NCBI GenBank assembly: GCA_043814605.1
Contig: JBDRJV010000016.1
Location: forward strand, 16,218-80,217
Source: Candidatus Omnitrophota bacterium
Lineage (GTDB): Bacteria > Omnitrophota > Gorgyraeia > B26-G9
Reading direction: 5' to 3'
DNA length: 64,000 nt
Of the stretch, positions 156 through 61,000 are shown in pieces; within the stretch, counting starts at the first letter, position 1; each line of letters starts with the position of its first letter. The notes under the pieces are model-generated. The model saw nothing but the letters and a program-made list of their open reading frames with translations, had not been told where the DNA came from and searched no databases. The position numbers were made by a program, and so were the translations under genes.

Positions 156-232
156 TGGTGGGCGCGGTAGGACTCGAACCTACGACCCCCTCCTTGTAAG
201 GGAGGTGCTCTAACCAACTGTGCTACGCGCCC
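156..232 (-). tRNA. tRNA-Val (anticodon TAC), 77 nt with encoded CCA
   Basis: Reverse complement reads GGGCGCGTAGCACAGTTGGTTAGAGCACCTCCCTTACAAGGAGGGGGTCGTAGGTTCGAGTCCTACCGCGCCCACCA. Cloverleaf with 7-bp acceptor, anticodon stem CCTCC/GGAGG, loop CTTACAA, T-loop TTCGAGT. Confidence 0.8.
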
Positions 233-43538: not shown

Positions 43539-43693
43539 AGATACTAAATTAGCCTATAGGATAATTTAAATAAATTTAGTTGTAATGAAAAAAAATGATT
43601 AATTAAATTGCCCGCCAAGTGTTTTCGGAGAAGCATGTTGTGGCGAGGCATAATTATCCCGCTTAAGCGGGAGAATTATGGAGATAATATATT

Positions 43694-43969
43694 ATGGATA
43701 AAGGTATTAAGTTTCTTGAGTTAGCGTCAAAGATTTTTAAAGTTTTAGCCTGGATTTCTGCAGTGTTTTTTGTGATAATATTTTTTATTGTGCTATTCGG
43801 AGCTGGGGGTGCAGATACGCCGCGGGTTGCCAGTATTATTTTCTTACTCGGTGGAGGTATTTATTTCCTGATTTTATTTAGTGCTGCTGAGATTATAACT
43901 CTCTTATTATCATTATCCTCTAAAGTTGATAAACTAACTAATCTTTTACAGGGAAAATCAGGCAGTTAA
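43694..43969 (+). CDS. small hypothetical membrane protein (two TM helices)
   Basis: 91-aa ORF with two hydrophobic helices; no motifs. Confidence 0.35.
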   Translation: MDKGIKFLELASKIFKVLAWISAVFFVIIFFIVLFGAGGADTPRVASIIFLLGGGIYFLILFSAAEIITLLLSLSSKVDKLTNLLQGKSGS

Positions 43970-44020
43970 ATTGTTAAAAGTCACATAAAATCATTCCTAA
44001 AAACCTGCTTTTTGCTTTCC

Positions 44021-44049
44021 TTGACAACCACAACTTAATGTGATATACT
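44021..44049 (+). promoter_or_regulatory. consensus sigma70 promoter TTGACA-17-TATACT driving the giant-gene operon
   Basis: TTGACA at 44021-44026, 17-nt spacer, TATACT at 44044-44049; predicted TSS near 44056, about 360 nt upstream of the first CDS. Confidence 0.6.
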
Positions 44050-44055
44050 TTTATC

Positions 44056-44417
44056 ACAAGATAAGAAAACAATTTATAAAGGTTTTCTAAGTATTTTTGT
44101 AAGTATCCGAAAATTCGCTAGTTAAGCGAAGCCATTACTAGGGGTGATGGAGGCAAACCCTGAGAAATCAGGGGGCCCATGTATTATGTAACATACATGG
44201 ACCTGAGCACTTATGTGTTCAGGGGCAAAGCTACGGGTCTAAAGCTGTTAGCTAAAATATGCTAAGATCGCCGGGCGCACCGATAACGCGATAAAAGTTA
44301 AGCTAAGATTGCCGAGTTGCCGAAGATAAAGGATAGTTGCTTGTGAATTCTATTTACAAATGACTTTCTAAATTTGGTGGGTCGGCTAATTTATTTTAGA
44401 TAATAAGGTGGTAAAAG
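44056..44417 (+). ncRNA. long GC-rich structured 5' leader (candidate riboswitch or cis-regulatory RNA)
   Basis: Several perfect hairpins: CGCTAGTTAAGCG, CCCUGA-GAAA-UCAGGG, CCAUGUAU...AUACAUGG, CCUGAGCAC-UUAU-GUGUUCAGG. GGCAAACC and GGGGCAAAGC motifs. Local GC content is far above the genome background. Confidence 0.35.
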
Positions 44418-44912
44418 ATGAAGAAAAATTACTTGTGGATACAGATTATCGCAGTGATTATAATTCAGGCCATGTTCCTGACACAGGCAGATTTTTCTCT
44501 TGCAGCATCCTATCACTCTCAAGAAACCTATCAGCAGGCAGCTTTAAAATTCCAGAAAATAGCAGATAAAAAAACAAGCCTGATCATTGGTGCAGCGTGT
44601 GTGCAAGCTACGCTTAATTCTTTATGCTTGCCAAAACTTACATTTAGCCGGATTTTTAGTATCTTAAGCAATACGAGTTTATCATTCTCAGAATTCATAT
44701 CTAAAAAAGAAGTCCGCCTAGTTTCTAACAATATTTATAAAGATTTTATTCATCATGCGGAAAATATATTTGAAATAAAATTTAATTACAAGTTGAATGA
44801 AATCAATCAAGATTTACGGGCTGAGTTAAAAACAAAAACAGACAAAGAATCAACAGCACCGCCAGTACTCGTAAAAAATACTTTTGATTGTTTTAAACAA
44901 CCGAACTGTTAA
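44418..44912 (+). CDS. hypothetical secreted protein, first gene of the operon
   Basis: 164 aa with an N-terminal signal peptide (IIAVIIIQAMFLTQADFSLAAS). Confidence 0.45.
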   Translation: MKKNYLWIQIIAVIIIQAMFLTQADFSLAASYHSQETYQQAALKFQKIADKKTSLIIGAACVQATLNSLCLPKLTFSRIFSILSNTSLSFSEFISKKEVRLVSNNIYKDFIHHAENIFEIKFNYKLNEINQDLRAELKTKTDKESTAPPVLVKNTFDCFKQPNC

Positions 44913-44931
44913 ATTGACAGTTCGGTTTTTT
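44901..44931 (+). terminator. hairpin plus T-run (partial terminator or attenuator) overlapping the stop codon of the 44418 CDS
   Basis: CCGAACTGT-TAAATTG-ACAGTTCGG followed by TTTTTT. Confidence 0.5.
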
Positions 44932-44944
44932 ATTAACACATTTT

Positions 44945-45313
44945 TTGCAGTCTAATAAAAGGATGGTGGTTCGGATGGAAGAAAGAAGAAGATATAAAAG
45001 AGAAAATAAGGAATTTTCCCTGCAGCTAAATGAGTTAAACAAAACAGACCATATAGCCATAAAGAATTCTTTTTGCCGGGATATTAGTTGTGTGGGTTTA
45101 TCAATATTTTCTTTTGATTTTTATCCGGTTAACCAGAAAGTGCATTTGAAATTATATTCAAGTACTTGGAATGAATTATTAGATACAGTAGGGAAAATTA
45201 TTTGGGTGAGGCAGCTGCCTTATCAAAATAAATATAGAATTGGTATAGAATTCACAAATACAAGCCAGGATGCAATGAAAAAAATTAAAACGATTGTTGA
45301 ATCCGGAAAATAA
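44945..45313 (+). CDS. PilZ domain protein (putative c-di-GMP receptor)
   Basis: RxxxR motif (RRRYKR) near the N-terminus and D-x-S-x-x-G motif (DISCVGLSI) about 30 residues later; 122 aa. Confidence 0.6.
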   Translation: MQSNKRMVVRMEERRRYKRENKEFSLQLNELNKTDHIAIKNSFCRDISCVGLSIFSFDFYPVNQKVHLKLYSSTWNELLDTVGKIIWVRQLPYQNKYRIGIEFTNTSQDAMKKIKTIVESGK

Positions 45314-46062: not shown

Positions 46063-46076
46063 TTTAGGGGGTAAAT

Positions 46077-49000
46077 ATGAGCAGCCTAACTGGAAAACTG
46101 TGGTTTAAAATAACCGCGTTTATTGTCTTGGAAACGTTTTTGTTTACGATTGCGGATATATCCTGGGCCGCAGATTATCGTGACCAGAAAACGCAAGCGG
46201 AAAGATTAATGGATTTACAGCCGTTAAAAGATACCCGGGAAAACCTGTCCCAGGATGCCTTAGGCGATAAAATAGTGCTAACCCAGCCGGCAGTGCCGTT
46301 TTTAGGCATAGAACATCCGCAAGGCATGCTGACACAGAAGCCCATGTCCTTAACCGAAACAACTATTTACGGGTTAACAATAGCGGGTAATGATTTAACC
46401 ACAATATTTAAGTCCTTGAAAAATTCCGGCTCATCCGTAACAGATGCTGGCTTTAGTGCAGTCCGCCAGGGATTTAACAAAAAGGAAATTTATCATGCAT
46501 TGCTTAAGGCCGGATATGACGAGAAAGAAGTGAAAACCCTTTTAGGCAGTTTATTAAAAGCCGAAGAAGAAAAGAAAAAGCAAGCCGAAGAAAACCAGGA
46601 AAAAAAGACCTCTCCTCCGGAAGAAAAAGAACAAGTCCAGGGACAAACTCCGCTTGTTAAAGAACAAGCAATATTTGAAATTCCCAAAGTTGCCACTTTA
46701 CCGGTTAAAGAAAAAGCTGTGGAAATTATCAACGACTCCCAGAAACAATTTGCATTACACAGGCAAACAGTGGAATTTGTCCGGCTGATGATTAAAGAAG
46801 GTAAACGCGGTAAGGAACTGATTAATATCCTTAAAAAAGCCGGATTAAGTAATGAAAGAATTATTACTACATTAGCCCAGTTAGGGTTTAGCCTGCAAAA
46901 TATTATCAGTATTTTAAAACAAGCAGATTTAAACTGTGAGGATATTGTAAAAGCAGTACAGAGTTCGCAGTTAACCTATTCTAATAAAGATATTTATACT
47001 GCCTTAATTCAATCCGGTTATTCGGATAAAGATATAATCAGTGCGTTTAAAGATGCCGGAATGAGCGCAGAAGATATCTTAAAGTTAACTACAGACTTAG
47101 GCCGCAATATGATTATTATCGCCCAGGCAATGCTTAATGCTGGTTTTAGCATGGCGGATGTAGCCCGAGCATATGTTTTAAAGGCAATGCAATGGTCTTA
47201 TGATCTAAGTGTGAATATCGTTAACTGTGCAGTGGAATCATTCAGTGCATTCTTGAATAATATCGGGCGAAAATTTTCCTCAAAAGAAGACCTAGCTTAT
47301 GAACTTATTCTGGATGATATTTTGGCTACCGGAGAGGTGGATTTACAGGGTAAGAACATCATGACTTCTATGCTGGCGATAAAAAATATAGCCACTAAAT
47401 ACGGGATTGATTTACAAGGATATAAGTTAACTATAGATAGTTTACAAGAACTAAGTGGTATGTCCATCCTGCACCTTGATGCAGACCACTGGGTTAGCTT
47501 AGTCGGTATTGAAGGGGATAAAGCCACGATTATTGATAACGGAACACGTAAAACAATTACTCTATCTGAACTTCAGGTGCGTTGGGACGGAAATATTTTA
47601 GCTCTCAATAAAGATAAGATTAAGGAGCATAAACTTTATGATTTGCAAATGCGCCAGATTCGCGGGGCAAGCTGGCTTTCTGATGCTTGGGAAGATGCGA
47701 CAAATTGGGTAAAAGATGCAGTGGAGGGTGTGGGAGATTTTTTTGTTGATGTATATAACGGGGTTAATGATTTTGTGCAAGGTGTTAACAATTTAATCGT
47801 GAGTTTTTATTATACTGCTTGTGGCAATCAGCAAAAAGCAGATTATTACTGGAATAAAGGAATGCAGCTTATTGATCAAGTTGTCTTGAAGATAATTAAG
47901 GCAATCCCAAATAACGGTATTCAACATGTTCTTGAATCTGTTTGGTCTGGTATAAGGATGTATGTACAAGGAGTGGGTAATGTTATTAAAGGGTCAATAA
48001 TGATGCTCCGGGGTGATTTTAAAGAAGGATTCTATCTTATGACTGCAGGCTTTACGCAGATGGCCGTTTCGGGTTTGGTTGCTTTATACAAGGTTTGCGG
48101 AGAAGATGGAGGCAGATTCATAGGACGATTTATTCAATGGGTAGTACGGATTGTTGCGGCTATCTTAACCTTTATTTTTACCAAAATTCTTGGTTGGACT
48201 GTAGTTGGCATGATTGTTGGAATGATCATTGCATTTATAGCAACAATGATTATTTGTATGGTTGATTATGATTTTGTTCAGTATGTTTCCACTGCTGATG
48301 CGGCGGGGATTAGTAAAGTTATGGGGAAAGTATTGGCTGCGGCTTGTATTTCAGCAGCAGTTGCAGCAGTAGGTTTTTTTGTTGGATATGCGCTTGATGG
48401 CCTCTTTAGCAGTACAGGAAGCGAATTAGCAACCACAACAAACACAGGAACCACAACAACAGCAAGTTCAGTCACAAGCCAAGTAGGAACAGGACTATCT
48501 ATAGGAACAACCAGTATGGTATCAACTACAGCACAGGCTTTTAGTACTATAGCAACTAACTTAGCTACAATAGGAACTAGTTTAGCGACTGCAGCATATA
48601 ATTTAGGAGTTTCTTTATATCTGGCGGTAATTAGTTTTAGTATCACTAATATAATCGGATCTTTACTTATGTTTGTCGATGCATTTATAGAGTTCGTTAT
48701 TGCTGTCAAGGACTCATTCAAAGGATTTTTTTCAGAATTTTCGAAAAATGTTAGTGCTGACATATCGCAAAATTGTGCAAATTCCGGAGTTACTGTCAAT
48801 CAAGAGGTACTAAAGGAAGCACTGGACAGTGGATTAAAAAATATGCTGGTTCAGCAGGCTGTTATGACCGGTGTTGTTTATGGCTGTGAGGCCGCAGGAA
48901 TTGATGATCCTTATCTTAAAGCTGTAATTGTTGGCGTTGCTGGTGCATTAGCGGGTAGTTATGGTGGCCCAGGGGGTTGGGAGGAGACGTTTAAAGAAAT

Positions 49001-52000
49001 GGCTGTTGCTGCGGGCTCAATGGTGGCAGAAGAATCGATCAGGCAAATGGGGTACCACGAAAATTGGGATCCTTTACTTACAAATAGCCTAGCTTCAATA
49101 ACTGGGTTTACAGTCCAGGCAGGTTTTGGAGCAGCTTTAGGCGCGGATTATTCAATACAAGATGATCCTGATACCAAAAAAATAGAAACTGCATATAACA
49201 ATACAAATCCTTTTTTCACAAGGTTGGGACATAATTTAAGAGCAGGATTAGGAAATGTGGTGGGAGATATTGCTTCGGATTATGTAGCTAGAATTTGTCA
49301 GGAAAATGAAGTAGACCCAACAATTACTGCAGTACTTAGTTCATGGGCTGGAACATTTACGACATCTTCTGTAGATTATATGACCGGTCAGACAGATTTG
49401 GGTTATTTAAATACTTTGGGAAAAGCAGCGGAACAAGGTACTTACGATGCTGTTTCAATTGTTACTTTTATGGAAACTAAAAAGTTATTAATGAACGAGC
49501 TTGATTTTACAGAAACCCAGGCTACAGGCATGGCCTATGGCATGACTTTACCCATGAGATTTATGTTTAGCCATAATAAAGTTGCAGAGGAAAATAAAGA
49601 TGGTTATATTGGCGGTGAATTTAAAGATGGGAAAGTATCATATGAAGGAATAACAATTAAGGATGAGTTTATTCGCGAGCAAGTAGGTGAGTTTTTTGAG
49701 AGCTTAGGGTATGGCAGCAAGCTTAGCGGTAATACATATGAACGGCATGATTATAATAGTAATTATAGTAATAAAGTATCATCTTTTGAATATATGTTAT
49801 TTGGCCAAGGCCTTACCCAGGATTTAGAGGGTAATTTTTATAGCAATGACGGCAGCATCAGTAATTACGGTACGCTAAATAAAAATAAGTTAGAGTATTT
49901 AAATTATTGGGCAGAAAAAAATCCCGAAATATTTGGCGAGAAATTTGATAGTAATACTGATGTAGAAAAAACAACGGATACCAATACTGATACTAAAGCT
50001 TCTAATTTAAGTTACGGCGATGCCTTGTTTACTACGGTTTCTGATGCACAGCTCAGTTATTATAATAAAAAAGGCATGACAAATATTAGTCAGGGACTCT
50101 CTGATGCGAGTGCTCACTACAAATATCAAAATAAAATAGACAGGTTAAATAAAATGGAGGGCGTTGACGTAAAGCTGGGAGAAGAATATGGGACTAAGAT
50201 TGTAGTAACTAATAATTCAGGGCAGGCAACAGAAGAATTATCATCAGAATTAAACAAAAATGTGGGAGAAGGAGACAGTGCTTTTTATGATTCTGCAGAC
50301 GCTTTTATCAATAATAATCCTTTGGTAATTACAAAGGCAGAAGGTACGAATTTTAGTACTGAATTAAGCAATGGAATGGAAGTTAAGTTTAATAGTTCTG
50401 ACAATGTATTTGAAGGACAAGGAGTTATAACAACACCAGTAAATTCGACTAACATAAATCAACTTTGCCCCAGTTTGAATGTTAATGCCAATTTACTAAA
50501 TGCTAACCAATATAATAATTATTCTTTAGTTGCGCAAGTAACTGTAGATTTGAAAAGCAAGACAATCATCCAAACAACCGATATGAAATTAACTGCAACT
50601 GCTACATCAACTAAAAACGTGATCCTGCCGGTCAATATCGGTAACCACACAGCTTATATTGGTGTTGAAACAAATGTAAATTTCAGTAATCAGGATTTAG
50701 TTTTAAAAAGTGATTCTCAGCTGAAAAATGATTATCAGCCTACAAATGATAATATTAAGGCAACAAATACCAGCGAAAAAGCAGCGGATGTTATTGTAAA
50801 ATACGACGCCGAAAATAAAGTTACGCTGAGTGTAAACAATATGGGACAAATAGGGATATCGAAAGAGACAATTAAAAATTTTAATGATTCAAAACAGTTA
50901 GTTAGTGATGTGATTGATTTACCGAATGGCTGCGATACAACCAAGACAGAGTTTGAACTTGTCTATAATACAACAGAAGGTTTGCAATTAACCGCAGTTG
51001 AAAATATTGCTGCGGGTAAAAAAATAAATTATGATGGCGAAGATGCATTCATAACCAGCAGCTCGGCACAGCTTATCTATAACGAGTCAGGAACAATAAC
51101 ATCGATTAAGGGGGAAGATACAAGGTCAAATCGATCAGGGAAAGATGTTACAGGGGTAGAAATTAAAACTTCCAAGGGTAATATTCTGCTGGAAAATAAA
51201 AACCAGATTTCTTTTGCCAATGAAAAAAGTGGTTTTCTTTCAGGTTTAAGTTCCTACTTTGGTATCGGCGGCGGAAATGAGTTTGTGATTGAAAACGGCA
51301 ATGTTTTGATGCTTACTAAGTACAACCTTGGCCAAAAAACAGAATATGAAATAATCCGCAATGGCCAAGAAGGCGGAACAAGCCAGGAAACAAGAGAATT
51401 AAACGAGATAATAATTGGCGAAGATAAAGCTTCGGGTAATTTGTTTATAGCCGAAGGGTGTGTTGTGAACATGGTAAAAAATGATGTTGCATTCACAAAT
51501 AATGATGTAATCCATAATCAGGCGGGAAGGGCTATTAATGTTGGCGGCTTGCAAATTAAACAGGGTGAAAATACTGCGATTCATAATAATCAAGCATTTA
51601 AGTGTATAGAAGTGACAAAACCTGTTGCTGAGGCTCGAGGGGATCTTAAATATCTGCTTGTAGTAAATAATTTAAAATCTAAGGAAAGTTATGATTTTCA
51701 AGTAGAAAATAATAATGTAAATTTACCTTTAGGTGATATTGATAGTAATGACATTTATTTAACTCAGAATGGTTCTCTGTCGTTTTTAACAGATAAAGCG
51801 TTTCAGGGTTCAGAAACAAAAAATCTTGATTTAAATGCAAAAACCACTACTTTTAATTTGAATCCTACAGAAATTAAAGGTCAGGTTGAAATAGATTTTA
51901 CACAAATCGGGCTAAAAGGCAAGACAGAAGGCAAAGGGTTACTTATTGGAGATAAATATGTAACCGGAGCAACCCAGCTAAGTGGAACAGGCAGCGGTAC

Positions 52001-55000
52001 CATAGATGAAACAAACACAATTATAATAAATGTTGATAAGCAAAATAATGAATCTTATTACAAGGGAGGAGAAGTAGTTTTAAGTGAAAACGGGTTAGTG
52101 TATAAACCCGGAGATAAACTTGAGATCACTGGTTTAGACAAAGGCAATACTTATGATCCAGGTCAGGGTCAATATACAGGAGCTTATGTTTCTACAGGTA
52201 ATGTAAAAATAATAAATGATGGAACTTACAATGTTAATCAAAATTATGTTACCAGTGAGAATCAAAATAGCCAAATCATATTCACGCTTACTAATGCTAA
52301 TGATCAAAAAATAGATTGTTTAATGAGTTTAAATCAGCCTATAGGAGAAGCAAAGGCTGGCCAGCAGCAACAATATACATTTAATTTTGCTAAAGAACAT
52401 GAAGGGTTGTCTTTAAATAGTGCATCTGGCAGAAAATACACCATTACACTGGATGAATCTAAATATATTCCTTTAAGTCAATCAGTGGCTTGTACAGGTC
52501 AGATTGAAACAGTAGAAATTAATGGGAATTCAAGATTAACAATCAATCAACAGGGTAATGAAGTTACAGCGGATAAGATTATTTTAACAGGTTCTAAAAG
52601 TACAATTGATGCTGGAGCGCAGATTGGCAAACAGACTGAAGATAAAGTAGAAATTATTGCCGGTGATTTGCATATTGATGCTTCGGATAAGCGTTTTGTT
52701 GGTACGGATACAGTGGCTACTTCTAAAATTGACCCTTCTCTTCAAGATAAAAAAGATCAAGAAACCCCAAAGACAATCACTTTTTCTAAAGATAATAAAC
52801 AAGCAACTATTCATTACACGGGTAATTGTGAATATTACTTAACCGGTGATGTTAGTTTTAATAAAGAAGGTCTTTATCTGGATAATGGAACTATATTTAA
52901 GGTTGCTGGTTCTGAAAATATTACTGGCTTTAATAATGCCGTAACAGTTTGTGATACAAAAGTCATTGAGGGGAAATTTCTCATTAATAATAATACTTTA
53001 GTTGCCCTTGATTCAAGTTGTCTTACCGTTGATGACCGGGCGCAAAGCGTTAATGGAAGTGAGAATTTATTTACGGTTAGTTATAAAGTAGAACTTACGG
53101 AGAAAGAAGGGATTTCTACTGTAAAAAGCATTGAAAAAAATTATATGTTTAATCGGGAGAACATTAATAGCCAAATTATATTTGATCAGGATTTAGGTAT
53201 AATCGGTAAAGTTGTAGAGAATAAAAAGGGAGAAATTTCCCTAAGTATTAATACTGCTGGGGGTAAAGAAGTATTAACAAATAAATATGTGGATGTATCA
53301 GTAAAGGAAACAACCCATGGTACAGGCAAGATTGTTACTTTAACAGATTCTAAAAATAGCATTATTGCTACAGCTGGTAAGATCCAGACAAGTGATGGGA
53401 AAAATCTTACTATGTGGAGTACTCAAAACGCTACCACTTATTTGCTTGAGGGTAAATCTCTAGCCCAGGGGCAGCAAATTTCTATTGGCAAATTTGACTA
53501 TACTGCAGGAAAAGATTTAGCTCCGATGCGTATTGAAACCATGAGTTTTACAACAAAAAATAGCACAGCTTTTAATTTTCAAGGAAACAAACTAAATCTT
53601 TCCGGCAATGTGAATTTGCACATCAATGCTTTTGAGCAGCAGCTGGGCATATCGGGTACAGATAAGCGCGGTAAATTAACGGGTATTGAGTTTACAAAAG
53701 CCAACAATGAGCAGTTTCTTTTAGTTAATGGCGCCCAGGCCCAGATAGTTAAAATAGATGAAAATAAATATGAATTGATTGTGACCAGCGGAACAGCCTA
53801 TGCGATTACGGATAATACTATTGGCAAGAAGACTGATTTTAAAACAGATAAACAACTCGGAAAAGATGGAGGCAAAACTACTGGTTTAAATGAAATTGTA
53901 ATAATCGATAAACCAAATGGCGATATTGCGATTGAAAAAGGGTCTCAATATACGGTTGCTCGTAATAATGAAACCGGACAGACAGAGGTTGTATTTAAAG
54001 AAAACGATAAGATTATTAATAATAGTAAACAAAAGATTACAATTAATGGGTTTACAGTGGCAGAGGGGAAAACCGCAGCCATAAAATTTGATCATGTTTA
54101 TATCCAAGGCAATACTTACAGTTTTCAAGGCAAGGATTACACCTTAACTAATTTTAATGACTTTGATTTAATCTGGACAGATACCCGCAATATCCAGGGC
54201 ACAATATCTGAAGCTAATTTACACGCAGATAAAAATGCAGTTAACTTTATTTTTAAAACTGATAAAGCAACTTATGAAGTAAAAAGCGGTAAAGAAGTTG
54301 GGTTAAAAGGTAATGCTTATTATCATATTAATGACATTGATGTTTGGGCTACTGGGATTGAAGATAAGTTTATTAAAGATGAAAACGGCAATACAGGCTG
54401 GAAGTTTGAAAAATTAGTGAACGGATCTACGTATAAAACAAAAGTTAACGGTGTTGAGGTTGTATTTATTGTTAAAGACAATAAATTAATGGCCAGTAAC
54501 GGTAGAGAAATTGGCCCGCAAAATTTAGGAAAGAATAAAAATTATAAAGATTCTGAAGGTATTACACATGATGATGTAGATATTTATGTTACTCAGGCAC
54601 TGGCTAACGGCCAGTTTGTTTTGGGTACAGACAAGCAGGGTGCAAACGCTTGGGGTCAGGTTCAAGCAGGAGTTAGTGAAGGGGTGTCTGATCTGACAAT
54701 TCAAGGCAATACTCATGCGAGTATTACTTCTGAGCAGGTAACCAGAAAAGACGGTACGCAGCAAACCGTGAATATTTATAGTACAGCTGCTGACGGGAAT
54801 TTCAAGATAGTATTTACTGCAGATAAAGACCTGAATAATACGGTTATTAAAGATAATCTCAAGGGAAGCCATTTAGATGTTTTGGGAGAAGCAGTGATAA
54901 ACGGAAAAACAGTTCTTGACGGTGCAGCAATAGATTATGTTGAGAAAAACGGTAATATTGTGCCTGAATTTTCTCAAGGTTCAAGAATATTAGAACATGA

Positions 55001-58000
55001 TTTTGGCTCAGGCCAGCAGATAATCAGTGTTTACCAGGGTAAAGATATTAAAGGCAATGATTTGGGCTGGAAATGGCATGCGGATAGTTCTCTGGTAGAT
55101 AAAGAATGGAATAATAATATTTATATTGATGGTAAAGCTAACCCAGTAACCTGTAAATTATCTGCTACAGAAACAGGGTTTGAAGTATTGATAAAAAATG
55201 GACAAGGGGTAAATTTAGGAAGGTCTGAAAATTTTGTAGATTCTCAAGGCATAAAACATAAAGATGTGGATATTTGGGTTACCCAGAAACTGCCTAATGG
55301 CGAATATGTATTTATGGTAAAAGATAAGGGGAAAAATGACTGGCAGCAGGAGCAATTAGATTTAAAAGGCGGTTCTCAGGAATCCATACATGGATCAACT
55401 TATGCAAAAGTTACTGATCAGGAAATTAACGGAAAAACAATCCGTAATTATTCAGAAAAATCTAATGGTCAATTCCAGTTAATATTTACGGCAGATAATC
55501 AGCTTAAGAACATGGGCATAAAAGATAATTTAGATGGCAGCAGCTTAGAAGTTGTTAATGCAAAAATCGGGGATAAATTTATTGTTAAAGGAGGGGTAAA
55601 TTTTATCCGGGATAAGCAGGGCAATGTCCAGGCGAATTTTGATAATGGCACTGTATTTCTTAATGCAGACGGCACACAAGGGGTTGTTACCGAAGGGGAG
55701 ATTCCTGCGCCAAAGGCTCCGGAAAAGAGTTATCTTGATAACTTACAAGAGAGATTTGGCCCGGAGGTAAAAGGAGCATCTTTAAAATCAGATAGCTGGC
55801 AGCAAATTAATAGTGAGAAAACCGGGCTCTTTGGTGAATACAAGTATGATTCTAAAACCGATACTTACACATTTAAAGGAACATATATTGTTTCTGAAAG
55901 CATTGAGATTTGGCAGGCAGAGTTGAATTTTACTAGTGATTTTCAGATGAAATCTGCTTCCGGCAGGGTTTTTGCCAATGTGGAGAATGCAAAGATAAAT
56001 ATTGCAGGAGATAATTTTGTGATTAAGACTGATCAAGCTGTCTCCGGTATGATTGAAATAGGTAAATATACTAACCAAGGAACAATTATCCTGGATCCAT
56101 ATTCTGATTTGCAGCTTTATAACCAGGTTAAAAATAATCAGGTTTTTATTTTTGGCAATGAGCAGGGTAAAAATGCAGAGTTTTTTATTAATAAGGAAAA
56201 GAATTTAGTTTTATGGAACGGCGTTATCGATGAAAGTAACGGGAGCTTTAGCTATTCCAGTACTGATCAGACCCAAACTAAAACTAAAACACAAGAACAA
56301 AAACCCCAGCAGCAGCAAAAACAAATACAGACTGGAGTAATTACTGATATTAAAATTTCCGGGAATGAAAAAAATGGCTATAACTATTCCGGAATTGTGG
56401 AAGTAAGGCAAGGGGAAAAGCAGATTTTAAATTGTGAAGGTGCAAGATTAATCGTAGAAAAAAGCGGATTCCAGTTTGGCAATATTGATTATGATTATAA
56501 TTCTTTATTAATCGGGGATAAAAGCGGTAATTTAGTGGCTCAGGACGGCTCAAGCGGAACAAAGCATCTTAGTTTTGAGGGATCTGATAAAAAGGTAGAT
56601 GTTAATTTTACTATGGCAAACGGCGGAATGAATATTACAAACATCAGCGGAGATACACACATAGATTCACAAGTAAAGACAGACTGTGGGGAAATTTCTT
56701 ATGAATATGATTTAGTTGTAGTAAAAAATCAGCTGATCAGTATAAATCATACGACTTCCTGGATTGAGAATAATCAGGAACCTGTAATTATTAATGAAAA
56801 AAATGCAAAAACAGTAACTTTTGAAGATCAGGGCAGGGATTACAGTTTTGAAAAAAAAGGCGATATCTATGTGCCTTATGCAGAGGTTAAGACGACTAAC
56901 TCAATTAATAGTTTGGTATTGGGAAAAGATGCTGAATCCTCTATAACGATACAACTTACTCCGACAAAAGAATTAACTTGTGTGTATGATTTACAGGGCA
57001 ACTATACTACCAAAGCTGGGCAAGATACGCTTGAAGGCCAAAAAGGCACTGTATTTAATTATGTGTATAACAATGAAACAAAAGAAGTGTTTGTCCCTGA
57101 TGGAACCATTTTTACTGCAGACGTAGAGAATTCAGGGGTTGTGATTACCGGAAAATTAAATATATTAAAAGAGGGTCATTTTAATCTTAATATTGGAAAA
57201 GACCAAGTTCACATTATGCCAAGCTTAGGAGGTACTGATAAAACCACAACTGATGATCGGGCAAACAAGATCAAGGTGAATGTCGATGTGCAGAATATGC
57301 TTTATGCAGAAGAGGGCTGGATAAGTTTGTATCAGGGTAATTTTTTGCCTGGGGAAAATGATTGTTTAGTGAATAATAGCGCAAGTTCAATTACGCTGCT
57401 TACTCCGGGACAAGACAGTAAACCCGTAGTGGTTAAAACAGGACAAGAAGCAATAATTAAAAATAACCAGGCCTATATTATTGGTAGTCAGGTTACCGCA
57501 GAAAAAAATTATATAGATAAAAACAATAGAATTTGGGTTGAGGGAACCTATGATATTTCCGCAGAAGGTAAATTTGTAGTAGTTGATGGTTATTTTATGC
57601 AGCAGGATTATCAAGCTAAAGATGGAACGATGTTCAGATTAAAAGATGATCAGTTTTTAACTGGCTACTCAGATAATACCGGACAAATTTGTTATGATCA
57701 GGGGCAAGATGTTGTCGCTTCTAATGTGTTAACGGATCAGCAGAATAATCAGCTTTCTTTGTTTACTAATTTAAAAACAGACCAAGATGGCATGCTTACT
57801 GAGCAGAATTATTATAAATTAGATAATCAGCTGCTTGAAACAGGTCAAAAATTCATTTTTGATGAAAAGCCCTATGTTATGCAAGAGCATAATGGGGAAG
57901 TTATGCCTTTATTTAAATCAAATAAGAATTTTACTAATGATAACCCGTTAATTTATTATAAAAATGGAAATAAAATTGAATTAGTCGGAGAAACTACTTT

Positions 58001-61000
58001 ATTGTATAACATTAAAGACCAGATGGTTGGTATCGAAGGCCAAACGCTGATAAAAGGAGAAAATGGTAAGATTAGCGGTACCTTATTTACAACAAATGAT
58101 GATTCTCAGAGCCAGTTTATAATTGAAAATAATAATAAGGTTACGCTGAAAGATGGCCAGCTGAATATTGGTTTTGCGCACCTTTATGCTGTAGATAATT
58201 ATAATACTTATCAAAAAGAAACCCTAGATTTAATTTCTAATGCAAGCTTAGGAAACTTAAAATCCGATACCAAAGAAAATCATATCTATTTAACCAGTGA
58301 TGCCGACAAAAATATCATCATAGAAAAAGGCAGTAAATTTACCGTACAAGATAACAACTTTGTAATTACTAATAATGATGTAATTTATACCGATAAAAAT
58401 TTATGGGTTACAATTTTAGTCGGATCAGGCGCAGCACAAGAAAAAATAGATCTCGGCCCTAATTCCGGAGGAATGGTCAAGGACGGGAAATTTTATGAAG
58501 CCGGAGATAGATTTGCGACAAATAACAAAAATATTCAAGGCAAAGTCGCGATTAATGCTACAACAAACAAGATTGAACTTGTTTACGAGGTGGTGGGGGT
58601 AGAAAATTCAGGAGATATCAAAGGAAACGGTAAAATCTTAAAGATGAATGATGATTATGTGATCAGTATCCAAAAAACTGATGAGGGCGATACAGAAAAA
58701 CGTTTATATGAGGTGGTCACTTCTCCTAATGGGCAAAAAAGCTTAAAGCAAGTTGATCAGATTTCTGTCCAGCAAGAATATAGTGTTGATTTTGGGCAAC
58801 GGACTTTAATCGAAAGCACTACCGTCAGTGTAGATGAAAAAGATATTGAGATAGAGACTGATTATAAGCTGATGGGGCATAAGCTAGCAGTAGGAGAAAG
58901 TGTAGATGTTCGCGCAATAAGTTTTCAGCAAGATCAAGATCCAGAATTTATTTATAATGGGCGTAAATATGTACTTACAAAGTTAGAAAATGGAAAGTTT
59001 ACTCCGGAAAGTTATGATGTATATGAAGCAAACAGTGAATTTATTCAGGGGCTGGTAGTTTTAGATAGTAAGGGAAGACAAGGCCAGATCGATCCTGAGA
59101 GGAATAAAAAAGTTACTGTAATGTTTAATCTTCAGGGAGAGGCCGTGGCTTTAATCGGAGATGGTTTTACCAGAGATGAAAGAGGAGAAAAATATTACGG
59201 TGTTGTTCTCACTGCAGAACATGGGGATCTATTAATTAAAAATGGGAAAAATTCGATTAGTATTAAAGATAATACGCTGACACTTATCCAGGCAGATGCG
59301 ATTACGATGACGCTTTGGGATAGCGGCCGGGAAATAACCCAGGTAAAGGATTCAGATCCGGGTTTAGGCAAGAGTGAGGCTCCTAAAGAAAACAAGATTT
59401 CTGTTACTAAAAGTCAAGGGATTGTTTTTGTTAATTTAAAACAAAACATTACGCTTTTTAATAATGATTGGTTTTTAACAGCGGGAGATGTTCTGGTGAA
59501 TAATTCTCCACAAGCTGAGCAAATACATATTTTATCAGCTGATGGGCGGACAATGTACAGTGTGGAACACGGACAAGAAGCAGCTGTAGAAAATGGAGGT
59601 ATTAAGTTAACCAAAGGTATCAATGCAATTGATTTGAATAACGCGAATATTGTTCAATTAGATAAAAACGGACAGCCCACAAAAACGATCACTAATCCCG
59701 GAGAAGATACTAGCTGGGTAAATGGTAATTATTTGGTTGCCACCAAAGGGGAGAATGGAAATTTTGAATTTACATCTGCGACAGGAGAGAAGTTAGGCTG
59801 GAACATGGCTAGTTTATATAATGTTCAAGCAGATAAAAATATTGTGGAAGTATCTTATCTTGGGAAAAAGATTTCATTAGATTCAACACAGTTTACTAAT
59901 GAGAATGACGGCGAGAGTTTTGGCTCTAGTTACTGGGCTAATGAATATGGGGTTAATGATACAGTATTATTAGAGCAAAGTGATTCATTCTCAACTTCTT
60001 TAAATACATTTTGGCAAACAAATAAAGCAGCAATTGGTGAAGCTGCTTTAGTAATCGGTATAGGTTTAGCAGCAGCAGCGGCTATAGTTGTTTTGCCAGC
60101 ATCTGTTTATATTACTGCGGCTACTTATGGTTCGGTTTTAGGTGTAATGGCTTTAACGGTATCTCTCAGCACCGATAGTTACATGGAATTAGGTAATATC
60201 TTAGCTAATGCTGAGGATACAAATAGTACTGAGAATCTATTCTGGGGCCGCGTTCTTTTTGAGACGGCATCAGCTTTTAGAACAGTGGCAGGGAATTTGG
60301 GAGTGGGGGGTCAGGTACACGGGGAAAGCAATATAGAAACGCCGATTATTGGAGGAGTTAATGCCGGCCATGTTATCGCAGCTGCTACAATTATATGCAT
60401 GGTATACACTGCCGGAGGGCTTGGATTTATAAAGGCATTAAAAGGGCCTTTAGTTTCTCTTTCCAATATTAATCTTGGATTAGTAGGAGAACAAATGTTT
60501 ACCTTAGGAAAAAATTTAATAGGGAAAGGTTTGAACGGAAAAGAAACTTTGGTTAAATCTTGGACTGGCTTGTTAAAATCTTTTGGGGCGATAAAGGGTT
60601 TGCATGTGGGTTTGTGGACAGCAGGGCATATGGCTAATATGCTGCCTGATCATAATCCAGCCTCAGAGTTATATCAATTAGTGCTTTCTCCATTTGCAAT
60701 GGGTGCAGAGTTTACACCAGAGGGATTATGGACAACTGTAAAAGGAGGAGAAAATTGGGATGATATAATCATGACTAACCTACACTTAGCGGGGTTTGCC
60801 GGGCTGATGTATTTTAGTGGGCCGATTCTAGAGTTATTGGCAAGTTCTAGAATTGGTAATTTTAGCGGTCAGTTTTTAGAGGTTTCATTTGGCGAAGGTG
60901 CTGCGGCAAGACTTTCAAGCAGAATGATAAACGGGTTAATTGAAGAAGGCGTCAAAGAGCAGGCATTAGGGGTAATTTTACGTCCTATTTTTGGCAATCA

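Follow-up and report, generated by a model that had tools for sequence, protein, structure and literature searches.

A predicted c-di-GMP-I riboswitch with paired hairpin insertions at a giant-gene locus of Candidatus Omnitrophota

The DNA considered here is a stretch of 64,000 nt (the window) from contig JBDRJV010000016.1 of a metagenome-assembled, uncultured Candidatus Omnitrophota, in which a promoter is followed by a leader of ~360 nt, which reaches to the ATG at 44418 (the first to have a ribosome-binding site), and then by genes that include one for a PilZ-domain protein and a giant open reading frame. The locus raises the question of what this leader RNA does and which signal, if any, it reads. 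An initial annotation had proposed a candidate riboswitch with pieces reminiscent of the cyclic di-GMP class I (c-di-GMP-I, GEMM-I) aptamer. We find it very probable that the leader is a class I c-di-GMP riboswitch controlling transcription read-through from a strong promoter, and its sequence suggests a new structural variant within that known class.

The leader as a member of the c-di-GMP-I class

When the window was compared with Rfam using cmscan, the c-di-GMP-I model RF01051 matched positions 44142-44324 on the + strand over the full model (positions 1-87). The match scored 41.9 bits, the gathering score being 35, and had an E-value of 8.4e-5 in the whole window and of 7.9e-7 in a 601-nt search. 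With permissive filters and E <= 10 the leader matched no other credible Rfam family; no match to c-di-GMP-II (RF01786) was obtained, nor one to the fluoride family crcB (RF01734) in 43900-44500, and the resemblance to fluoride-riboswitch elements that had also been suggested is without support. The c-di-GMP-I identity with odd spacing proposed in the initial annotation was borne out. The motifs GGAGGCAAACC, CCCUGA-GAAA-UCAGGG and GGGGCAAAGCUACGGG lie where it had placed them, and its succession of GCAAACC, GAAA hairpin, two extra hairpins and GCAAAGC is correct, more so than cmscan's own alignment, which leaves two 52-nt blocks unaligned. That annotation had recognised the pair of extra hairpins between C44 and G45 and overlooked a second pair in the junction strand J1-2. 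Because of this second pair the aptamer starts at 44107 and not at ~44142; it spans 44107-44325, ~219 nt compared with ~90 nt normally. The cmscan alignment also pairs P2 differently (44158-63 with 44219-24, in the 3' strand of the second extra hairpin). Relatives show a local GAAA hairpin, G(A/G)C and then the insertion, and since the CCUGA...UCAGG resemblance of P2 to hairpin hpB is found only in the window, we rejected that pairing as an artefact. In one relative (L002) cmscan misaligned the entire 5' half.

A search for homologues of the first gene returned only that protein itself. Relatives (numbered L001 and so on) were therefore reached through the N-terminus of the giant protein and through a conserved ROK-family neighbour 0.9 kb upstream, which gave 18 loci from GTDB species genomes. 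The syntenic order is ROK, ~90-aa membrane protein, leader, homolog of the 164-aa first-gene product and PilZ, and the leader is kept at the same place, the conservation in relatives that had been named as a check. Matches of the c-di-GMP-I clan above the cut-off were detected in 11 further syntenic Omnitrophota loci, nine with RF01051 and two with RF03167, and L002 added one more RF01051 match, of 38.4 bits. Syntenic leaders of ordinary spacing scored 60-77 bits and those with extra hairpins 38-44 bits, and the leaders of L011 and L017 were below the cut-off or truncated. The 21-mer GCAAAGCUACGGGUCUAAAGC was invariant in 15/15 syntenic loci having the P3 5' strand, all found independently of it, and a metagenome scan for this 21-mer gave 116 more stretches. 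Leaders carrying a 22-nt element in the P3 apex are called Omnitrophota-type here (36 distinct leaders). Such riboswitches, with the 22-nt element, also precede unrelated genes (L033, L050, L052, L066, L067, L071, L096, L097, L118 and L134), so by their sequences they are not confined to the giant-gene locus. A single metagenome contig (L047) holds two ordinary c-di-GMP-I aptamers with the 21-mer, not of the Omnitrophota type, at 1542 and 6575, 5 kb from each other. A degenerate leader is present at 9330-9460 of L001 (GCA_016213925.1, contig shared with L024); it keeps P2, one hairpin and an intact terminator, has lost both the 22-nt element and the P3 5' strand by deletion, and belongs to an operon without PilZ.

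Statistics of the core were taken from 28 aligned leaders, some with insertions and some free of them. The whole structure was 94.4% paired, compared with 27-37% when the partners were slid by 1-3 columns. Both-side changes were observed at 6/6 pairs of P2, which thus covary as the initial annotation had asked to be checked; 97% of P2 cells were paired and 0/500 shuffles reached the covariation score. P3 formed with the distal of two candidate 3' strands was 99.6% paired, with only GC/GU alternation and no double changes because its 5' strand is invariant. In the known aptamer C22 pairs with G45 and C44 with the bulged G83, A47 intercalates, C92 pairs with the ligand, and G14-C93 tops P1 (PMC3764141). 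The columns of G20, G21, A47, C44, the bulged G and C92 were invariant and that of C22 was at least 90% conserved. Equivalents of the ligand-contacting residues are present in the window (G44152, A44227, C44320 and C44154-G44225), and between the invariant equivalents of C44 (44176) and G83 (44311) the tertiary pair is predicted. P1 would be formed by CCG at 44107-09, which can pair with C44321, G44322 and G44325 in the geometry taken from the RF03167 consensus structure (5' C-x-C-G, 3' C-G-A-A-G); these bases hardly vary. Leaders that apparently lacked the P1 strand actually read CCGAAAAU-[hp1]-[hp2]-A-GGCAAAC. A hairpin P0 in place of P1 was rejected, as CCGAAAAU was found further upstream with two hairpins inserted 3' of it. 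With the inserted hairpins removed, the 5' core of the window is one base off that of L007, a 77-bit ortholog; the P2 segments of the two leaders differ by 1 nt.

The analysis shows family membership by covariance model, the orthology of the leaders, covariation in P2 and in the extra hairpins, and a conserved overlap with a terminator. Judged by sequence and predicted structure, it agrees with every testable c-di-GMP-I feature except the compact three-way junction, J1-2 being broken by 37 nt of hairpins and C44 and G45 lying 48 nt apart, and it is therefore filed as a structural variant and not as a standard member. The leader RNA would be expected to bind c-di-GMP.

The promoter upstream has 11/12 consensus matches with a TG element 5' of TATACT, and the leaders of L001, L002 and L009 carry the same promoter; transcription would start at ~44056. 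The consensus promoter and the hairpin-dense leader of the initial annotation were both confirmed. The minimum free energy (MFE) of 44056-44425 was -113.5 kcal/mol (z = -6.4, 0/100 shuffles as stable), and RNAfold gave perfect hairpins at 44132-50, 44158-73 (GAAA loop), 44177-44200 and 44202-23. The claim that the leader is rich in guanine and cytosine (GC) held for the aptamer, where 44107-44325 reaches 47.5% (top 1.3% among 219-nt windows), and failed for 44021-44417 as a whole (38%, compared with 36% in the 64-kb window). The 5' end of the leader (44056-44106, AAGAAAACAAUUUAUAAAG...) is conserved in the leaders of L007, L009 and L098, and in some relatives it is a long A/U hairpin stopping just 5' of the P1 motif CCGAAAA. 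The predicted features are collected in Table 1.

Table 1. Predicted features of the leader and the genes downstream, in window coordinates
Feature	Position	Strand	Details
Sigma-70-type promoter	44021-44049	+	TTGACA 44021-44026, 17-nt spacer, TG-n-TATACT (TATACT 44044-44049)
Putative P1 5' strand CCG and AAAA of J1-2	44107-44113	+	CCG 44107-09; CCGAAAA(U) motif, conserved in all relatives
J1-2 twin hairpin	44114-44150	+	RNAfold; RNAalifold on relatives
hp1	44114-44130	+	UUCGCU/AGCGAA
hp2	44132-44150	+	CCAUUACU/GGUGAUGG
Aptamer 5' core	44151-44176	+	A19, G20 (44152), G21-C22 (44153-54), AAA, P2, linker GGC
P2	44158-63/44168-73	+	6 bp, CCCUGA-GAAA-UCAGGG, GAAA tetraloop 44164-67
Linker GGC ending in C44	C44 = 44176	+	
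C44/G45 twin hairpin	44177-44224	+	48 nt, exactly between C44 (44176) and G45 (44225)
hpA	44177-84/44193-200	+	
hpB	44202-10/44215-23	+	
G45-C46, A47, P3 5' strand, CUAAAG tetraloop-receptor half	44225-44245	+	A47 44227; P3 5' strand 44229-39; the 21-mer
P3 apical extension	44246-44306	+	Hairpin, 22-nt element, helix Px
Hairpin only in window	44248-65	+	
22-nt element GAUCGCCGGGCGCACCGAUAAC	44266-87	+	Pseudo-copy of P3 3' strand
Helix Px	44267-71 with 44288-92	+	
Predicted true P3 3' strand, G91, C92, P1 3' strand	44307-44325	+	cmscan; P3 3' strand 44307-18; bulged G83 equivalent 44311; C92 44320; C93 G94 44321-22; G97 44325
Terminator-like hairpin and U-rich tract	44306-44399	+	Hairpin 44306-44392, then UAAUUUAUUUU
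Ribosome-binding site and ATG of first gene	44405-44420	+	AAGGUGG
First gene	ATG 44418	+	164 aa, signal-peptide-like N-terminus
Second intrinsic terminator (T2)	44899-44933	+	13-bp stem 44899-44927, then U-run; overlaps first-gene stop codon
PilZ-domain gene	44945-45313	+	Pfam PF07238, E = 1.4e-9
Giant open reading frame	46068-64000	+	>5977 codons, beyond window end; C39 peptidase-like domain

Twin hairpins in the junction

The insertion between C44 and G45 ends two bases from the intercalating A47, and RNAfold gave it two hairpins with -24.3 kcal/mol and z = -7.1. Eighteen distinct relatives carry an insertion at this site too, 39-95 nt long and unrelated in sequence. When folded unconstrained, 17/17 distinct insertions formed exactly two hairpins (z from -2.1 to -8.3), which abut one another and are flush with the insertion ends; the eighteenth, that of L011, was read by eye. 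Within a homologous subgroup the stems were preserved by compensatory changes, in the series U.G, C-G, A-U and G-C, G.U, A-U. The J1-2 insertion gave a similar picture, RNAalifold on 11 leaders yielding two abutting hairpins with compensatory changes in 11/14 pairs. Ordinary GEMM-I leaders with the 21-mer had 0 insertions at C44/G45 and none in those of their J1-2 flanks that were inspected. At 5700-5880 of L011 a third, diverged twin-hairpin copy was observed within the P2 5' strand, besides those in J1-2 and at C44/G45.

Stacked coaxially, two abutting hairpins would bring the entry and the exit of the insertion to a nick, and helical mass could be added with a single backbone step still between the flanking pocket nucleotides; these nucleotides would be separated by the width of a helix if only one hairpin were inserted. 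The twin form may be explained by this geometry, since a coaxial pair would keep the pocket nucleotides in place. The insertions may also have a function of their own. A well-studied aptamer would accept large helical insertions within 0-2 nt of its pocket, each time in the form of two flush hairpins, which makes the twin hairpins a natural experiment in junction geometry that could guide riboswitch engineering and the design of covariance models. Standard models lose 20-35 bits on the twin-hairpin variants, misalign them, and miss some (L011, L017).

Terminators, the pseudo-copy and the genes downstream

The leader contains a hairpin and U tract that share a strand with the aptamer, as expected of a terminator platform. 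The distal strand (44307-20) comprises the P3 3' strand, G91 and C92 and is at the same time the 5' arm of the terminator. In 29/32 leaders this strand, (U)AGCCGAGCUGC, pairs with GCAGUUCGGCU, directly after which comes a U-run (mean z = -4.1); the terminator of the relatives is compact, with a stem of 10-13 bp before the U-run. Full-length MFE folds placed the distal strand in the terminator in 25/28 leaders, and in transcripts ending before the 3' arm of the terminator it was found in P3 in 15/28. For the window, the terminator state was calculated at -95.9 kcal/mol and the aptamer state at -89.9 kcal/mol, both without the energy of ligand or tertiary contacts. The aptamer and the terminator are mutually exclusive, and c-di-GMP should therefore favour read-through; the terminator overlap points to what is probably an ON switch. 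Without ligand, the terminator would form and transcription would stop 5' of the first gene. With c-di-GMP, P3, P1 and C92 would be locked in the aptamer, the terminator would be blocked and RNA polymerase could continue into the gene for the 164-aa secreted-type protein. Read-through beyond the second terminator would reach the PilZ gene, a gene for a 240-aa protein and the giant gene.

The apex of P3 carries the 22-nt element, which is near-invariant in all Omnitrophota-type leaders (GAUCGCCGrGCGyAyCGAyAAC). The P3 3' strand is repeated in its first half, which could make 9/10 P3 pairs, and the second half is similar to CCGAUAA, the usual 5' flank. The 5' part of the element pairs with the linker that follows it (helix Px) in a variable register with several compensatory examples, and the Px duplex energies had a mean z of -1.95 compared with shuffles. 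This proximal copy may serve the OFF state as a decoy, or it may be left over from a tandem aptamer.

The second terminator, T2, was kept after the homologous gene in 17/17 relatives checked (L002, L007-L013, L015, L019, L022, L023, L025, L086, L098, L101 and L117), at ~+480 to +860 nt from the 21-mer. Its sequence is conserved as (G)CCGAAyUGUU...AACAGUUCGG(C)UUUUUU, the 3' arm resembling that of the riboswitch terminator (GCAGUUCGGCUUUUU), and the gap between T2 and the PilZ gene is too short for a promoter. Because T2 stands after the first gene, the PilZ and giant genes would be reached only by read-through. The initial annotation had taken the leader as that of the giant-gene operon: PilZ and the giant gene do lie downstream, and the intervening T2 means that it is not a plain operon leader. 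The PilZ translation shows the binding motifs RxxxR (RRYKR) and DxSxxG (DISCVG), and the 240-aa protein is encoded between PilZ and the giant gene.

At their N-termini the 164-aa protein (LWIQIIAVIIIQAMFLTQADFSLAA, window 44418-44540) and the giant protein (LWFKITAFIVLETFLFTIADISWAA, 46077-46200) resemble each other, and tblastn with the 164-aa protein matched the N-terminus of the giant protein in L006. Between riboswitch terminator and start codon, seven relatives (L011, L022, L071, L085, L086, L089 and L101) have tandem modules of ~55 nt, in one to three or more copies (e.g. L086 ~1058-1170), of the form AGGAUGAAAUAAUCCCGC-[hairpin, loop ACAGGAUGU]-GCGGGAUAAAU. The GGA in the loop looks like the CsrA binding consensus. 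These modules are absent from the leader of the window, and the only three near matches (<= 2 mismatches) were found elsewhere in the window. A near-perfect inverted repeat, AATTATCCCGCTTAAGCGGGAGAATTAT, lies at 43650-43678, just 5' of the 91-aa membrane-protein gene, and an Rfam scan detected three tRNA genes, at 159-232 (-), 15035-15108 (+) and 16680-16753 (+).

Alternative readings and relation to known systems

Several observations weigh against a functional ON switch of the c-di-GMP-I class. The RF01051 score is only 7 bits over the cut-off, owing to the insertions; P1 is without covariation, which we attribute to its nearly invariant bases; and binding might in principle suffer from helices placed 0-2 nt away from nucleotides of the pocket. 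The terminator of the window is atypical, an 87-nt hairpin (-29 kcal/mol alone) with a loop expanded by ~57 nt and an interrupted U tract, and a simple terminator scan missed it. An alternative OFF-switch wiring is made possible by the second, conserved version of the P3 3' strand, and the strong T2 weakens the link between the riboswitch and the giant gene. The low score, 41.9 bits compared with 60-77 in insertion-free orthologs, and the truly degenerate L001, which lost its P3 5' strand, could be read as signs of a decayed, non-functional relic in which the insertions disrupt the pocket, expression being constitutive or controlled elsewhere. We consider such a relic very improbable, since the deficit is explained by the two unaligned 52-nt blocks and not by core mismatches, the core positions are all intact and invariant in leaders with and without insertions, and the insertion-bearing forms comprise 18 (C44/G45) and 12 (J1-2) distinct sequences. 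A GEMM-I fold with another ligand, for example 3'3'-cyclic GMP-AMP (3'3'-cGAMP) or whatever the GGC/UAU variants bind, is brought to mind by the two relatives that score best with RF03167. The RF03167 consensus is GCGAAG, with G47, and the window and all relatives, those two included, have GCAAAG, so A47 rules out the c-di-GMP-I-GGC variant. The 3'3'-cGAMP-selective GEMM-Ib aptamers have A at position 20; this position is G in the window (44152), invariant in the 28 leaders, which rules them out, and position 92 is C. Little if any weight remains for a different ligand. A further proposal concerns the extra hairpins alone and is compatible with a functional riboswitch, namely that they are neutral or selfish insertions (palindromes like repetitive extragenic palindromes or miniature inverted-repeat transposable elements, or local duplications), tolerated without a regulatory role. 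Their states are patchy on the ROK protein tree, where insertion-bearing and insertion-free leaders are close neighbours; all four combinations occur where both sites could be read (seven leaders with neither, 12 with C44/G45 only, seven with J1-2 only and five, the window included, with both); sequences are unrelated across sub-lineages; and in L011 the insertion is found a second time, in diverged form, inside P2. Against these stand the compensatory changes that preserve the stems, the restriction always to the same two sites and to two flush hairpins, and the lack of any further copy when the 64-kb window and ~0.9 Mb of related loci were searched with blastn-short and by motif, for which reason a dispersed-repeat origin was rejected. 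We regard neutral insertion as a serious possibility without favouring it. At the other extreme, the twin hairpins as a recurrent, selected expansion, the pseudo-copy as a decoy and a four-strand exchange would together make a mechanistically distinct GEMM-I sub-class coupling c-di-GMP to the giant-gene locus. Coaxial pairs next to the ligand pocket, occupying either or both of two sites, may then tune the kinetics of folding or ligand response, and the OFF state may consist of the P3 5' strand paired with the decoy plus the terminator, the ON state of the P3 5' strand paired with the true strand plus the decoy paired with the linker. As a whole this sub-class seems to us unlikely.

The opposite direction of control has also to be weighed. 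In an OFF switch the proximal copy would close the ligand-binding form and the distal copy would be freed for the terminator; without ligand, the distal copy would displace the proximal one, which would be taken up by Px, and would act as an antiterminator. Such wiring could draw on the 9/10 P3 pairs open to the proximal copy, on the canonical P3b stem of 2-4 bp with a ~4-nt loop that precedes this copy in most relatives, and on helix Px, which supplies the required four-strand exchange. The tail of the proximal copy, ACCGAU, also resembles the tail of the Vibrio cholerae Vc2 aptamer. The equivalent of C92, however, is U in ~40% of the proximal copies and an invariant C in the distal ones, and in 27/28 proximal copies a G stands in place of the conserved U closing P3 opposite A49; on these two grounds we take the distal strand as the likely real aptamer strand and the proximal copy as disfavoured. 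In addition, the C47 pair is broken in three leaders, cmscan chooses the distal strand despite the penalty for ~40 inserted nt, and among MFE folds of transcripts that end 3' of the proximal copy only 9/28 have this copy paired with P3. An OFF switch is accordingly improbable, and we retain the ON switch.

If the riboswitch reading is right, c-di-GMP becomes a concrete candidate signal for expression at an Omnitrophota giant-gene locus. The conserved pseudo-strand together with the second terminator suggests control in several layers, which in vitro work could take apart. A preprint on Omnitrophota giant genes notes pilZ neighbours and GGDEF domains, and the word 'riboswitch' does not occur in it. 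In a limited full-text literature search we found no junction insertions described for the c-di-GMP-I class and no riboswitch described at Omnitrophota giant-gene loci.

Compared with Vc2 and the RF01051 consensus, the window shares GGCAAAC with G20, a 6-bp P2 capped by GAAA, a linker ending in C44, GCAAAGC with A47, the CUAAAG...UAAGAU receptor, the bulged G, and C92 followed by the CG of P1. It differs from them in its length (~219 nt compared with ~90), in the twin hairpins of J1-2 and C44/G45, in a P3 apex longer by ~60 nt with a near-invariant pseudo-copy, and in the linker GGC in place of GAC. The RF03167 model has the same fold, belongs to the same clan and is the best model for two relatives, whereas the window lacks its defining G47. 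Tandem c-di-GMP-I arrangements exist (PMC12452182), and the 22-nt element looks as if one aptamer's 3' strand had been joined to the 5' flank (CCGAUAA) of the next, so that it could be the relic of such a pair. Unlike the tandem arrangements, the window has one complete aptamer, the second being without G20, P2 and the P3 5' strand.

Bc2 of the Bacillus cereus group is an ON-type c-di-GMP-I riboswitch that precedes an adhesin or surface-protein gene. Vc1 of V. cholerae is likewise of the ON type and stands before gbpA, an adhesin/surface gene (PMC4744006). Unlike in these two, the ON direction in the window derives from the terminator overlap alone, and the genes concerned are those for an orphan secreted-type protein, a PilZ protein and a giant protein, with a second terminator in between. 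As with Vc1/gbpA and Bc2, the ligand would block a terminator or another repressing structure and so raise the expression of surface or attachment functions.

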